This document shows, in pieces, positions 58,938 to 64,000 of a stretch of DNA of 64,000 bases. Location: NCBI GenBank assembly GCA_027068085.1, contig JAMOUQ010000022.1:23907-87906 (forward strand). The letters are read 5' to 3'. Numbering within the stretch: position 1 is the stretch's first letter; every line of letters begins with the position of its first letter. The DNA comes from Desulfobacteraceae bacterium (GTDB taxonomy: Bacteria; Desulfobacterota; Desulfobacteria; Desulfobacterales; Desulfosarcinaceae). Position numbers and translations under genes: made by a program. A model generated the notes under the pieces. That model saw nothing but the letters and a program-made list of their open reading frames with translations. It was not told the origin of the DNA and did not search any database.

Positions 58938-58953
58938 AGGCATGGAATGTGCA
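58938..58953 (+). promoter_or_regulatory. possible sigma54 promoter of flhA-flhF-flhG-fliA
   Basis: AGGCATGGAATGTGCA has correct GG-N10-GC spacing but a weaker match (GGCATG / TGCA). It lies 47 nt upstream of the flhA ATG. Confidence 0.45.
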
Positions 58954-58999
58954 GAACCAATGGCTGCGAGATAACAAAGAACCATACGGCAGGAAGACC

Positions 59000-61102
59000 A
59001 TGGAGATAGCGCAGGCAAAAATCGGAGCGGGAAGACTTTCGCTGATTCTGGACAACACCGACATCTTCATGGGATTCGCAGCCATGTGCATCCTGATGGT
59101 GATGGTGATTCCCATCCCGCCGACTTTGCTGGACCTTTTTCTTACCTTCAATATTACTTTCGCCCTGGTCATTCTTCTGGTGGGCATGTACGTGATGAAT
59201 CCGCTGGAATTTTCGTCTTTTCCCTCGATTCTGCTGCTGGCCACCCTTTTCCGTCTTTCCCTAAACGTGGCTTCGACCAGGATGATCCTTTTGCACGGCA
59301 GCGAAGGCACCCAGGCGGCGGGGAAAGTGATCAAGGCCTTTGGAAACTTCGTGGTCGGCGGAAACTATGTCGTCGGGGTGATCGTCTTCCTTATCCTGGT
59401 GGTGGTCAACTTCGTGGTCATCACCAAAGGGGCCGGAAGGATCGCCGAGGTCGCCGCCCGTTTCACCCTGGACGCCATGCCGGGCAAACAGATGAGCATA
59501 GACGCAGATCTGAATGCCGGCCTGATCGATGAAAGCGAGGCCCGCCGCAGAAGAGAACAGATAGCGCGCGAATCGGAATATTACGGAGCCATGGACGGGG
59601 CCAACAAGTTCGTCCGGGGCGATGCCATAGCCGGTATAATCATCACTCTCATCAACATCGTGGCCGGCTTTGCCATCGGTGTTCTGCAAAACGGGATGTC
59701 CTTCGGCCAGGCGGCCCAGACCTACACCCTGCTCACCGTCGGAGACGGTCTCGTAAGCCAGGTGCCGGCTCTGATAATTTCCACGGCGGCCGGTATCGTG
59801 GTCAGCCGGGCAGGCTCCGACAGCGGCATGGGCCGGGAGATCGCTTCCCAGCTGTTTTTCCAGCCCCGGGCAGTTGCCGTGGCGTCGGTTATTCTTTTCG
59901 GGTTCGGGCTTATTCCGGGCCTGCCGGCCTTTCCCTTTTTCATGCTTTCGGGCATCAGCGGACTGGTCGCCTATCTGGTTTTTCAAACCAAACAAAGCGA
60001 TGGGCAGGCCGAGACAGAAGAAGCCGCCGGGGAACAGGAAGACGAAGGCGAGCTTGGTTTTCAGCCCCTGCCGCCGCTTGACATCCTGGGACTCGAAGTG
60101 GGCTACGGCCTGATCCCGTTGGTGGACGTTGAACAGGACGGCCAGCTGCTGGAGCGGATCAAGTCCATCCGCCGCCAGATAGCCCAGGAAGTGGGCATAG
60201 TCGTACCTTCCATCCACATCCAGGACAACATGCAGCTAAAGCCCGGTCAGTACTGCATCAAGCTCAGGGGCGTGGAGGTGGCCTCCGGGGAACTGATGAT
60301 AAACTACTACCTGGCCATGAGCCCTGACCCCGGAATCGAGCCCCTGGACGGCATAGCAACCAAGGAGCCGACATACGGGCTGGATGCCTACTGGATCAAA
60401 GAAGCCGAGCGGGAAAAGGCGATGGCCAAAGGTTACACGGTGGTGGACCTGGCCACGGTTCTGACAACCCATTTGTCGGAGGTGATCCGGCGCCATGCCC
60501 ATGAATTGCTGGGACGGCAGGAGGTCCAGCAGCTGATCGACACCGTCAAGGAAACCCATCCCAAGGTCGTTGAAGAACTGGTTCCCAACCAGCTCAGCCT
60601 CGGGGCCGTGGTGAAGGTGTTGCAGAACCTGCTCAAAGAACAGGTGCCCATCAGGGATCTGCTGACCATCCTGGAGGCCCTGGCCGACTGGGCGCCGGCG
60701 GTCAAGCAGGTGGACGAGCTGACCGAATATGTCCGCCAGTCCCTTGCCAGGACCATAACCCGCCAGTACCAGGGACCTGACGGTACGCTGGAGGTTATAA
60801 CCCTGGATCATGGCCTGGAAAAGCAGCTTGCCGATGCCGTTCAGCACACCGAGCAGGGCAGTTTCATGTCCATCGATCCGCAGACAGCCCAGAGGATCAT
60901 GAATGTGCTGGCGCTCAGGCTTGAGGCTTTCGCCGGGAAAGGGGTCCAGCCGGTTGTTCTGTGTTCGGCCCAGATCCGGCCGCATTTCAAGAAGATGATC
61001 GACCGGTTCATCCCCAACCTTACGATTCTGTCATACGAGGAGATCGAGCCTCAGGTAAAAATTCATTCAGTGGGCGTCGTGGAGCTGACAGATGCAGATT
61101 AA
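59000..61102 (+). CDS. flhA: flagellar export gate protein FlhA
   Basis: About 700 aa from the ATG at 59000. FVVITKGAGRIAEVAARFTLDAMPGKQMSIDADLNAGLIDE and a conserved cytoplasmic domain. Confidence 0.95.
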   Translation: MEIAQAKIGAGRLSLILDNTDIFMGFAAMCILMVMVIPIPPTLLDLFLTFNITFALVILLVGMYVMNPLEFSSFPSILLLATLFRLSLNVASTRMILLHGSEGTQAAGKVIKAFGNFVVGGNYVVGVIVFLILVVVNFVVITKGAGRIAEVAARFTLDAMPGKQMSIDADLNAGLIDESEARRRREQIARESEYYGAMDGANKFVRGDAIAGIIITLINIVAGFAIGVLQNGMSFGQAAQTYTLLTVGDGLVSQVPALIISTAAGIVVSRAGSDSGMGREIASQLFFQPRAVAVASVILFGFGLIPGLPAFPFFMLSGISGLVAYLVFQTKQSDGQAETEEAAGEQEDEGELGFQPLPPLDILGLEVGYGLIPLVDVEQDGQLLERIKSIRRQIAQEVGIVVPSIHIQDNMQLKPGQYCIKLRGVEVASGELMINYYLAMSPDPGIEPLDGIATKEPTYGLDAYWIKEAEREKAMAKGYTVVDLATVLTTHLSEVIRRHAHELLGRQEVQQLIDTVKETHPKVVEELVPNQLSLGAVVKVLQNLLKEQVPIRDLLTILEALADWAPAVKQVDELTEYVRQSLARTITRQYQGPDGTLEVITLDHGLEKQLADAVQHTEQGSFMSIDPQTAQRIMNVLALRLEAFAGKGVQPVVLCSAQIRPHFKKMIDRFIPNLTILSYEEIEPQVKIHSVGVVELTDAD

Positions 61103-62507
61103 ACGTTTCGAAGCCCGGAATATGTCGGAAGCGCTGAAGATGATCAAAAAGGAATTCGGCGAGGAAGCCGTGATCCTGTCGGCCCGCAACAATCGTCCCG
61201 GCCGTTCGATTTTCGGCCGGCGCAGGACAAAGGGGGTGGTGGTGACGGCGGCCGTCGATCACCAGGCAGGCAGGGATAATCTTCAGACCGGCCGGGATCC
61301 GGGAATGAGATCCGCGCCGGATCGGGATCGGGGCAAGCGGCCCGATGTTTCGGACCGGGGGGGCACCGGCCGCATAATTCATCAGTTTAAGCCCATAACT
61401 CCCACCGGGCAGAGAATCTGGCAGCTCAGGTCGGCGTCGGGAAACGGGCTGTCCGGTGAAGCGTCCGTCAACCGGCAGTTGTACAGAAAACTTGTCAGCC
61501 AGGGAGTTGAGGAAAAGCTCGCCGAAAGCTGGAGCCGCCAGAGCGACAAGCTGGTGGATCAGTCCCTGCCGCTGAAGCAGCAATTACAGCGGGCTCTGGT
61601 TCAGTTGCTGGCGGCCCAGGGGATTGTTGTCACCATGGCCGATTCGCGCCGGCGCAAAAAGGCGGGCCTGGTGGTCATGGTGGGACCGGCGGGCGCAGGC
61701 AAAACCACCATGGTGGCGAAGCTGGCGGTGGGGCACCTGCTGGAAAAAAGCGGCACGTGCGCCATGATATCGCTCGATGACAGTAAGGTGGGCGGATCGT
61801 ACGAACTGGAAGCCTACGGCCGGGCAACCGGCATAAGGGTTCTGAAAGCCTATGACGGCCGGCAGCTCGAACGGGGGCTTGCGGAAGTTGAAGGCTGCCG
61901 GCAGGTCTATGTCGATACTCCCGCTGTCAGAGGCTCTGATGCCCGGTCGATTTCACAGCTGCGCCGCATGCTGGCCAAACTGCCGTCGGCCGTAATATAC
62001 CTTGCCATCTGCGCGACCGCCCGGCAGGACGTAATAGCCAAATGGATAGAGCTATACCGTCCCCTGGGAATCGAAGCTGTCGTTGTGACCCGCCTGGACG
62101 AATGCAGCCGGATCGGACACGTGGTCAATCTGCTGGTAAAAGAGCGGCTGCCGGTGGCCTATCTGAGCAACGGGCCGTCGGTGCCGGAAGATTGCAGCAA
62201 GGCCGATGCCCAGGCCGTGGCCCGCTTTCTGCTGCCCGGCGATCATGAGCGCCAAGAAGGGGACCGGAAACCGGAGGCCGGTCTAAAGCACGATCGGTCC
62301 GGACAGTATGTGGCCAACCGCAATTCCGATATTTTCCACCGGCACGACTGCAAGGCCGTAAAGAGAATCAATCAGGACAACATGGTGTTTTTCGATGATC
62401 AATTCGATGCCCTGGGACAGGGCTTCAAGCCTTGCCGGATGTGCTGTTCGGAATTGGTCGACACGGTGCGGTTCAGCAGAAATCTGTATGCGGCAGGTGC
62501 CCGCTGA
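61092..62507 (+). CDS. flhF: flagellar GTPase FlhF with C-terminal Ada-like Cys/His domain
   Basis: 471 aa; MQIKRFEARNMSEALKMIKKEFGEEAVILS B-domain; G1 VGPAGAGKTT; TRLDE G4. An extra segment of about 90 aa follows, ending ...YVANRNSDIFHRHDCKAVKRINQDNMVFFDDQFDALGQGFKPCRMCC... Confidence 0.9.
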   Translation: MQIKRFEARNMSEALKMIKKEFGEEAVILSARNNRPGRSIFGRRRTKGVVVTAAVDHQAGRDNLQTGRDPGMRSAPDRDRGKRPDVSDRGGTGRIIHQFKPITPTGQRIWQLRSASGNGLSGEASVNRQLYRKLVSQGVEEKLAESWSRQSDKLVDQSLPLKQQLQRALVQLLAAQGIVVTMADSRRRKKAGLVVMVGPAGAGKTTMVAKLAVGHLLEKSGTCAMISLDDSKVGGSYELEAYGRATGIRVLKAYDGRQLERGLAEVEGCRQVYVDTPAVRGSDARSISQLRRMLAKLPSAVIYLAICATARQDVIAKWIELYRPLGIEAVVVTRLDECSRIGHVVNLLVKERLPVAYLSNGPSVPEDCSKADAQAVARFLLPGDHERQEGDRKPEAGLKHDRSGQYVANRNSDIFHRHDCKAVKRINQDNMVFFDDQFDALGQGFKPCRMCCSELVDTVRFSRNLYAAGAR

Positions 62508-62533: not shown

Positions 62534-63436
62534 ATGAGTTCACCCAACGGCAGTAGCGGCAAAGTGATTCACCTCAATCCGGGCGGACGGAAAGGATTGG
62601 CTGCCTCGGGCGGCCATGGCGCGGCCCGGTCCGGACAGGCCCCCCGCAGTATAGCCATAACCTCCGGCAAGGGGGGAGTGGGCAAGACCAATATCGTTGC
62701 CAATCTCGGATACTCCCTGGCCCGCACGGGCAAAAGCGTACTTGTCTTCGATGCCGATCTGGGCCTGGGCAACCTGGACGTGCTGCTGGGGCTGGCTCCC
62801 AGGTTCAATCTGTCGCATGTGATTCAGGGGCAGGCCGATCTGGAGCAGATCGTGGTCGCCGGTCCCGGAGGGATGAAGATTTTGCCGGCTTCTTCCGGGA
62901 TACAGGAGATGACCAGCCTCAGCCGGTCGGAAAGAAGCGAGCTGAGCCGGCAGCTGAAGAACTTTGTCAACCGCTTCGACGTCCTGCTGATCGACACGGC
63001 CGCGGGGATATCCGGCAACGTACTGCATTTCAATATCTCGGCCGATGACGTGATGGTGGTGGTCAACCCGGAGCCGACTTCCATTACCGACGCCTATGCC
63101 CTGATGAAGGTCCTGTCGGTCCAGTACGGCCTGGAGCGTTTCAACCTGCTGGTCAACGCCGCCCGCGATGCCAGGGAGGCTGAAGAGGTCTGCCGGCAGC
63201 TATGCCTGGTCAGCGACAGGTTTCTCAGGATTGAAATAGATTATCTGGGTTTTGTGCCTTTTGACGAGAATGTAAAAGCGGCTGTGAAAAAGCAGACCAT
63301 CATCAGCGAATTTCAGCCTGATTCAGGAGCCAGCCGCAGTTTTGTTTCCATCGCGCGCAGGATTGCTTACCTGCAGCCGATGCTCGCTGCCGGTCAATGC
63401 CCGCGCAACCCGGAAATAGGGGACTTGCTGATTTAA
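62534..63436 (+). CDS. flhG: MinD/ParA-type ATPase FlhG (FleN)
   Basis: Deviant Walker A ITSGKGGVGKTN; VLVFDADLGLGNLD. ATG at 62534 follows GAGGAG. The ORF-track start at 62432 lies inside flhF and is rejected. Confidence 0.88.
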   Translation: MSSPNGSSGKVIHLNPGGRKGLAASGGHGAARSGQAPRSIAITSGKGGVGKTNIVANLGYSLARTGKSVLVFDADLGLGNLDVLLGLAPRFNLSHVIQGQADLEQIVVAGPGGMKILPASSGIQEMTSLSRSERSELSRQLKNFVNRFDVLLIDTAAGISGNVLHFNISADDVMVVVNPEPTSITDAYALMKVLSVQYGLERFNLLVNAARDAREAEEVCRQLCLVSDRFLRIEIDYLGFVPFDENVKAAVKKQTIISEFQPDSGASRSFVSIARRIAYLQPMLAAGQCPRNPEIGDLLI

Positions 63437-63468: not shown

Positions 63469-64000
63469 ATGGAATTGGCAGAATCGCGTTTGAACTCGCT
63501 GTCAAAGGACGACCATAGCCTGCGGAACGAGATAATTGCCGAGTATCTGCCTTATGTGAGCAGGATAGTAAACCGGATCGCGGTTCACCTGCCTCCCACG
63601 GTGGAAATAGACGATCTGATCAACGTCGGCATAATCGGCCTTATCCAGGCAATCGAACGCTACGATCCCAGCCGCGACAACAAGTTCATGACCTATGCGG
63701 TCTTCCGCATAAAGGGGGCTGTCCTGAGCGAACTGCGCTCGCGCGATTTTCTCGGCCGCACCACACGCCGCAAGATCAGAAGCCTGGAAAAGGCTTACCT
63801 CAAGCTTGAACAGAAGTTGGGCCGCAGCGCCAGCGACGAGGAAGTGGCCCGGGAATTGAACATGGACCTGGACCAGCTTTACCAGGTAAAGCGCATGAGC
63901 AACATCTCTTTCATCAGTTTTGAAGAAATAGGGTACACGTCCAGGGAAGAAAAGGACAACTTCATCAACGCCCTGATGCGCAACGAATCGGACGACGCCC
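63469..64000 (+). CDS. fliA: flagellar sigma factor FliA (sigma28), N-terminal part; 3' end outside the window
   Basis: My own translation gives MELAESRLNS...IIAEYLPYVSRIVNRIAVHLPPTVEIDDLINVGIIGLIQAIERYDPSRDNKFMTYAVFRIKGAVLSELRSRDF (sigma70 region 2, FliA/WhiG type). The frame is open to base 64000. In-frame ATGs also occur at 63439 and 63454; 63469 follows GGAGAG. Confidence 0.85.
   Translation, partial: MELAESRLNSLSKDDHSLRNEIIAEYLPYVSRIVNRIAVHLPPTVEIDDLINVGIIGLIQAIERYDPSRDNKFMTYAVFRIKGAVLSELRSRDFLGRTTRRKIRSLEKAYLKLEQKLGRSASDEEVARELNMDLDQLYQVKRMSNISFISFEEIGYTSREEKDNFINALMRNESDDA

Follow-up and report, generated by a model that had tools for sequence, protein, structure and literature searches.

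FlhF and FlhG are the textbook switch by which a cell determines how many flagella it builds and where, and the locus described here raises the question of why the GTPase of this pair ends in a module resembling the N-terminal metal-binding domain of Ada, and what such an addition might mean for the switch. The gene lies in a stretch of 64,000 nucleotides from a Desulfobacteraceae bacterium (GTDB family Desulfosarcinaceae; GenBank assembly GCA_027068085.1, contig JAMOUQ010000022.1, positions 23,907 to 87,906), hereafter the window, to which all coordinates refer; all features named below lie on its forward (+) strand. The open reading frame of flhF (61092..62507, 471 aa) comprises a B-N-G core, a linker, a zinc module and a C-terminal peptide. 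Residues 1-383 correspond to a normal FlhF, and beyond the signal recognition particle (SRP)-type G domain, after ...VARFLLPG, the frame continues for another 88 residues. By sequence and predicted fold, this tail is a structural His-Cys3 zinc module of the ADA_N-like or "sunset" type, for which zinc binding is predicted. The fusion is genuine and conserved across one clade, in which the FlhF-FlhG switch probably works differently.

The original prediction, made from the DNA letters of the window, had proposed a continuation of about 90 residues after ...VARFLLPG and had assigned the peptide YVANRNSDIFHRHDCKAVKRINQDNMVFFDDQFDALGQGFKPCRMCC to an Ada-N-type Cys/His metal-binding domain. The peptide was recovered at aa 406-452 and nucleotides 62307-62447 exactly as given; the start of the tail, placed at 62240, has to be shifted by one base, as the codon begins at 62241 and translating from 62240 runs into stop codons. 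When the region proposed for a profile search (residues about 385-471) was examined, Pfam Ada_Zn_binding (PF02805) matched aa 406-452 (62307..62447) with 30.2 bits in the whole protein and with 34.3 bits in the tail alone (E 2.3e-8), which is above the curated cut-off of 23 and far beyond chance. A profile built from 24 FlhF tails and searched against all PDB sequences retrieved only four Ada N-domain sequences (1adn/1eyf, 1wpk, 1zgw and 1u8b), with E-values between 1.6e-6 (1adn) and 4.9e-6. The AlphaFold2 model of the tail alone reached a predicted local distance difference test (pLDDT) score of about 88-90 across a 50-residue core with the order strand-strand-helix-strand-helix. Comparison of this model with the PDB using Foldseek gave 1u8b, 1zgw and 1wpk, all Ada N-domain structures, as the sole meaningful matches (probability 0.99-1.0), with a template modelling (TM) score of about 0.5 for a query that included 20 disordered residues.

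In the profile alignment, F-H416-x3-C420 of the tail falls on F-C38-x3-C42 of Ada, and P-C448-x2-C451 on P-C69-x2-C72. The predicted first metal ligand, His416 (CAC codon, 62337..62339), occupies the position of Ada Cys38 (FHrkdC versus FCRPSC), while Cys420 (62349..62351) is the equivalent of Cys42 and C448-R-M-C451 (62433..62444) that of C69-x-x-C72. Each of the four ligands is 100% conserved in 49 non-redundant tails, as are A408, N409, S412, I426, F434 and A440. The H-x3-C in place of C-x3-C that had been read from the window sequence holds for the entire set, with His at the Cys38-equivalent position in 49/49 FlhF tails. Several basic residues align as well, namely K421, K446 and R449 with Ada R43, R67 and K70. 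By this alignment, the tail cannot carry out Ada-type methyl transfer at the canonical position, because the reactive Cys38 is invariably His. Pfam and NCBIfam searches of the window FlhF detected only the SRP54/FlhF core and the zinc module, and neither an AraC-type helix-turn-helix (HTH) nor an O6-methylguanine methyltransferase domain. Within the whole genome (3.1 Mb, 96% complete), the FlhF tail is the sole Ada_Zn_binding match, and no canonical Ada regulator is detectable.

The persistence of the fusion in relatives, on which the original prediction had made its case depend, was borne out by 49 non-redundant FlhF loci with an intact fusion. A word-indexed search restricted to the tail retrieved 80 FlhF-length proteins with the same tail from NCBI, JGI, ENA and Logan assemblies, a few of which are called "Ada metal-binding domain-containing protein" by the Prokaryotic Genome Annotation Pipeline (PGAP), for example in Desulfatitalea alkaliphila. 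The frame is uninterrupted and free of internal stops in dozens of independent assemblies, some of which consist of just 1-7 contigs, and a frameshift or mis-assembly joining a small reading frame to flhF is refuted by this recurrence. An alignment of 32 full-length proteins identified the tail and the N-terminal B segment as the best-conserved parts. Within the window's family, whole-genome searches located the tail in most of the flagellated genomes, and among 201 sampled Desulfobacterales genomes 104 encode FlhF, about 40 of which reach query residue 450 or further; these tail-length FlhFs are spread over at least 15 GTDB families. Named genomes with the tail include Desulfatitalea, Desulfobacteraceae, Desulfosarcinaceae and Desulfobacterales metagenome-assembled genomes. 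Among 400 genomes sampled across the phylum, frames of FlhF size that carry the tail were confined to Desulfobacterales, and outside this order the domain occurs in frames of about 210-260 aa or of 85-136 aa.

To place the domain among its wider relatives, the tail was compared with 1.84 billion representative proteins, which gave 1527 relatives at E ≤0.001. These include 43 clusters of FlhF-like proteins, staphylococcal nuclease (SNase) fusions, small proteins of about 90-160 aa and secreted proteins with 2-7 tandem copies; four of the latter (P0081, P0082, P0089 and P0093) carry 5-7 His-Cys3 modules separated by Pro- or Ala-rich linkers. In the 147 best matches, with the window protein excluded, His is the first residue in 249 of 249 recognisable motif copies, and Cys in none. 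Three non-FlhF relatives match the NCBIfam family NF051437 ("sunset domain"), P0101 above the cut-off (32.9 bits versus 27) and P0086 and P0081 below it, and the same NCBIfam search also matches sunset-domain variants of the ribosomal proteins L17, L20 and S2. The FlhF tail itself gave no NF051437 match at E up to 10, so that a direct assignment was rejected and the link runs through its homologues only; the tail does fit the sunset layout, being C-terminal and His-first (H-x3-C...C-x2-C). Taken together, the sequence comparisons assign the module to the His-first "sunset / ADA_N-like" subfamily. A curation paper for ECOD describes the same superfamily as "ADA_N-like domains", mostly C-terminal and joined to ComEC, cell-wall-binding repeats, LGFP repeats or ribosomal protein L4; FlhF is not among the architectures given there (Pei et al. 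2025, PMC12353581).

The closest non-FlhF copies in Desulfobacterota are C-terminal modules of secreted SNase-type nucleases. Four frames of about 210-260 aa fetched from relatives within the order consist of a signal peptide, an SNase domain and an HCCC domain; these proteins, of about 230 aa, belong to four genomes of the order (L094, L097, L098 and L099). Judged by size only, domain-bearing frames of about 210-260 aa recur across Desulfobacterota in the 400-genome sample, and the window's own genome lacks an SNase + HCCC protein. It is plausible that a secreted protein of this type was the donor of the FlhF tail.

With regard to the layout of the tail, the segment between G domain and zinc module (aa 384-405; 62241..62306) is a variable linker that is poorly conserved in the alignment. 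It measures about 20-45 aa among relatives, changes in sequence, and comes out as disordered in the full-length AlphaFold2 model, where aa 385-401 have pLDDT <50. The zinc module reaches pLDDT 82-89 in the full-length model and is predicted equally well alone, and the model thus describes an independently folding module on a flexible tether. It is followed by a C-terminal peptide (aa 453-471; 62448..62504) with a short predicted helix (tail residues 70-80), low pLDDT over aa 458-471 and a clade-typical A-G-x-R ending. Across many families, the 49-tail alignment contains endings such as ...YAGxR(Y), ...ISGYR and ...AAGAR, with a recurrent A-G-x-R/Y motif that could act as a linear interaction or degradation signal.

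The second departure concerns the partner protein. Canonical FlhG carries an N-terminal enhancer helix with a DQAxxLR motif, the Gln of which is co-catalytic for the FlhF homodimer and has been described as the protein analogue of SRP RNA (PMC12826062). The flhG gene of the window (62534..63436, 300 aa) encodes a MinD-type ATPase with a deviant Walker A motif (KGGVGKT) and with Pfam and NCBIfam MinD/ParA matches (TIGR01969 and TIGR01968 at E 1e-37 to 1e-43). Its N-terminus reads MSSPNGSSGKVIHLNPGGRK and contains no DQAxxLR motif; at this site it has G-K-V-I-H-L (aa 9-14; 62558..62575), an instance of the clade-specific xKVIxL. The fuller clade motif of FlhG, [ST]-x-[KN]-[VI]-I-x-[LIM]-x-x-[RK], starts about 8-12 residues from the beginning of the protein (62534-62620 in the window). 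That FlhG lacks the activator helix had been remarked upon in the original prediction, and the absence was found to go with the tail. Among flhF-flhG pairs from 79 non-redundant Desulfobacterales loci, the tail stands beside an xKVIxL-type FlhG in 49 (3 read by eye) and beside a DQAxxLR FlhG in none, while FlhFs without the tail are paired with DQAxxLR FlhG in 23 loci and with xKVIxL-type FlhG in 7. The xKVIxL motif hence adjoins 49/49 tail-bearing and seven tail-less FlhFs and is absent from the 23 DQA-type loci, which means that the FlhG change is somewhat wider than the tail and the KVI motif independent of it.

A maximum-likelihood tree of the FlhF core, calculated with the tail columns left out, parts DQA-associated from KVI-associated FlhFs with a Shimodaira-Hasegawa-like approximate likelihood ratio test (SH-aLRT) support of 99, and all tail-bearing proteins fall into the KVI clade. 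Within this clade the tail needs five state changes, the simplest account being that it was acquired once close to the base and lost about four times thereafter. Gain of the tail and loss of DQAxxLR map to the same deep branch, and the association is, as judged from this tree, real. Three tail-less FlhFs of the KVI clade (L069, L071 and L073, from G110, G097 and G196, respectively) have C-terminal extensions of 40-80 aa without the Cys/His pattern, which may be degenerated or replaced tails. The C-terminus of FlhG differs between the two groups as well. DQA-clade proteins uniformly possess a GNIKFFxKR-type amphipathic membrane-targeting segment (23/23), whereas this region has diverged in the KVI clade, with W-x-L-T-E-I-P or IGDLLI endings in the window's family. 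The window FlhG ends in ...NPEIGDLLI (63340-63436), W-x-L-T-E-I-P occurs in sister genera, and other KVI-clade families keep an N-x-F-W-x-H-L variant.

A third departure is found in the GTPase core of FlhF itself. The SRP-type G domain (aa 194-381; 61671..62234) matches Pfam SRP54 with E 4.5e-21, and G1 (GPAGAGKT) and the G4 Asp are intact. Motif alignment revealed three substitutions, K232 in G2 (Arg to Lys; 61785-61787), A278 in G3 (DTPG to DTPA; 61923-61925) and R334 in G4 (TKLD to TRLD; 62091-62093). The G2 Arg, G3 Gly and G4 Lys are each present in 23/23 proteins of the DQA clade, compared to 48/56, 47/56 and 27/56, respectively, in the KVI clade, and deviations at these motifs are confined to the latter, zinc-tail clade. 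These sequence changes suggest an altered or weakened GTPase cycle in the KVI clade. The best family match of the window FlhF is by far the NCBIfam FlhF model TIGR03499 (aa 1-277, E 2.7e-42), at 145.7 bits and hence below the equivalog cut-off of 174.15; the N-terminal B segment of FlhF is conserved and the gene lies between flhA and flhG of a flagellar operon. The score below the cut-off helps to explain the PGAP names of some orthologues (Ada domain or "AAA family ATPase").

As for the function of the tail, we tentatively favour, at somewhat less than an even chance, a flexibly tethered module that binds nucleic acids. FlhF (B-N-G) is joined by a disordered linker to a 47-aa zinc module and then a short conserved C-terminal peptide, a fusion that most simply arose once near the base of a Desulfobacterales FlhF clade. 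In this clade, the DQAxxLR enhancer helix of FlhG has been replaced by xKVIxL, and G2, G3 and G4 of FlhF have turned variable. The module, as an independent tethered domain, might contact the backbone of DNA or RNA and could provide FlhF with an additional contact in a switch that would no longer use classical FlhG-stimulated hydrolysis, for example by tying FlhF to flagellar promoters, the nucleoid or RNA. We infer nucleic-acid binding because the N-terminal domain of Ada (N-Ada), the only characterised homologue, binds the DNA backbone, because the nearest paralogues sit on secreted nucleases and others on ribosomal proteins, because several basic residues of the tail align with basic residues of Ada, and because the charge of Zn(His)(Cys)3 resembles that of methylated Ada. 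With respect to the last point, an electrostatic-switch model was reportedly proposed for Ada by He et al. in 2005 (cited in PMC12353581), and by analogy the Zn(His)(Cys)3 site would have the same net charge as methylated Ada, the DNA-binding form, in which the negative charge is reduced. A DNA-linked role of FlhF would not be unprecedented, since binding to flagellar promoters, in electrophoretic mobility shift assays and in chromatin immunoprecipitation with quantitative PCR, has been reported for the FlhF of Campylobacter jejuni, a protein without a domain of this kind (PMC7105676).

Several observations weigh against nucleic-acid binding and against the place given to the tail in the altered switch. 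The zinc core has only a modest basic character: its net charge averages +2.8 and is about +1 in the window protein, compared to +6 for Ada. Metal binding by the tail is itself a prediction. Moreover, secreted tandem-repeat proteins without an evident nucleic-acid link commonly contain this domain, and the ECOD curators call the function of ADA_N-like domains undetermined (PMC12353581). In addition, the correlation between tail and FlhG type represents essentially one phylogenetic event rather than many independent ones. Finally, seven KVI-clade FlhFs have lost the tail but keep a KVI-type FlhG, and the tail is therefore dispensable for the FlhG part of the rewiring.

Among the alternatives, a role as protein-protein adaptor is possible, though on balance unlikely. 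Here, the zinc module, with or without the A-G-x-R peptide, would attach FlhF to a landmark of the cell pole, to a protein of the flagellar basal body or to a second FlhF and would fill the role that HubP or FipA contacts have in gamma-proteobacteria. Small zinc fingers frequently mediate protein contacts, the module is near neutral in charge, and a flexible linker with a conserved terminal peptide is a combination seen in many short linear interaction motifs. Furthermore, the localisation of FlhF in other bacteria hinges on lineage-specific partners (PMC11236974, PMC12826062). However, no gene that might encode such a partner recurs with the tail in the examined loci, where the order flhA-flhF-flhG-fliA is unchanged, and the other contexts of the family (SNase, ribosomal proteins and Ada) point to nucleic acids. 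Nor is the KVI motif of FlhG the partner, as it persists where the tail is lost; the idea that the zinc module serves as docking site for the xKVIxL peptide is weakened by the seven tail-less loci that retain the motif.

An intramolecular role is improbable. The tail would fold onto the NG domain or bridge the homodimer, thereby tuning GTP binding or hydrolysis and standing in for the lost enhancer helix of FlhG. Tail gain and DQAxxLR loss fall on a shared branch, which, like the relaxed GTPase motifs of the clade, would agree with this, yet the full-length AlphaFold2 model has a disordered linker and predicts the domain no more confidently in context than alone, some members of the clade lack the tail, and the conserved residues are mostly ligands and core positions, as in unrelated sunset domains. 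Distinctly less probable still is a redox or zinc sensor, in which Zn(His)(Cys)3 would lose its metal upon oxidation or zinc limitation and thereby switch flagellar assembly. Zinc-thiolate sites can serve as redox switches, the hosts are anaerobic sulfate reducers, and proteins of the window's family frequently have an additional Cys452; this residue is not conserved across the wider clade, however, and the same domain works in secreted proteins, i.e. in oxidising surroundings. We also see a slim chance that the tail binds RNA specifically, either the ribosome or ribosomal RNA surface or a dedicated small RNA or mRNA, and so restores an SRP-RNA-like cofactor to FlhF in a clade whose FlhG no longer has the DQAxxLR Gln, the protein counterpart of SRP RNA; this, if true, would make FlhF a ribonucleoprotein GTPase or a factor that targets flagellar proteins during their translation. 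An Ada-like alkylation sensor that takes methyl groups from damaged DNA, as the homology to the Ada N-domain and a generic suggestion of methyl acceptance for ADA_N-like domains (PMC12353581) might imply, is very improbable and is ruled out as an Ada-type methyl acceptor by the His at the Cys38 position in all tails and in all 249 best-match motif copies, next to the lack of an HTH or AlkB/AlkA partner and of any other Ada_Zn_binding domain in the genome. An artefact that fused a small reading frame onto flhF is next to inconceivable given the uninterrupted frame in independent assemblies, including those of 1-7 contigs.

The neighbourhood of the gene is that of a flagellar locus with the order flhB-flhA-flhF-flhG-fliA. 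Immediately upstream lies flhA (58949..61102; FHIPEP family, Pfam E 9e-286), and flhG is directly followed by fliA (63469..64000), a sigma-28-type factor by its Pfam Sigma70_r2 and Sigma70_r3 matches, which runs past the end of the window. The long flagellar operon also holds fliI, flgE, motA, fliM, fliP, fliR and flhB.

Both domain families are known, and automated pipelines already record the pair in precomputed Pfam assignments and in a PGAP name; new is the architecture within a lineage-wide re-engineering of the FlhF-FlhG switch. Our literature search returned no description of an FlhF with a zinc or Ada-like domain, nor of a DQAxxLR-less FlhG clade paired with such an FlhF, and a 2025 review of FlhF and FlhG, which mentions neither zinc nor Desulfobacterota, is among the current reviews in which the DQAxxLR enhancer helix counts as a conserved, central element of the mechanism (PMC12826062). 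A branch of Desulfobacterales that covers at least 15 GTDB families combines three linked departures, in the FlhG motif, in the GTPase motifs and in the added zinc finger, and represents a natural experiment on how the switch can run without its known activation step. It also offers a first cytoplasmic, functionally framed context for the ADA_N-like / sunset family. The fusion occurs in at least one species in culture, Desulfatitalea alkaliphila, and its proteins are therefore accessible to production and testing.

Compared with known systems, the tail shares with the Escherichia coli Ada N-domain (N-Ada10; 1adn, 1eyf and 1u8b) the fold, the ligand spacing (x3 and x2, about 26 residues apart), hydrophobic residues at the same core positions and a number of aligned basic residues. 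It differs in that its first ligand is His rather than the methyl-acceptor Cys38, the first ~17 profile positions are missing and the net charge is much lower. The module is C-terminal instead of N-terminal, and no AraC-type HTH or methyltransferase domain follows. With the ADA_N-like / sunset family (NF051437), the C-terminal place and the His-first H-x3-C...C-x2-C pattern are held in common; members of this family are fused to SNase, ComEC, cell-wall-binding repeats or ribosomal proteins, many being secreted and in tandem, whereas the FlhF tail is cytoplasmic and single-copy, and its host is neither listed among the ECOD architectures nor named by NCBIfam. The secreted SNase + HCCC nucleases (about 210-260 aa) resemble the tail in C-terminal placement and ligand pattern but possess a signal peptide and a nuclease catalytic domain, and the relation is likely that of a domain donor and not of shared function. 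Finally, the window pair shares with the canonical FlhF-FlhG systems of Bacillus subtilis, Vibrio, Shewanella and Pseudomonas the operon position flhA-flhF-flhG-fliA, the B segment, the NG core and a MinD-type FlhG with KGGVGKT. In contrast to these systems, its FlhF has an added zinc module and varies in G2, G3 and G4, while its FlhG is without the DQAxxLR helix and the co-catalytic Gln and, in the window's family, also without the GNIKFF-type membrane-targeting helix.

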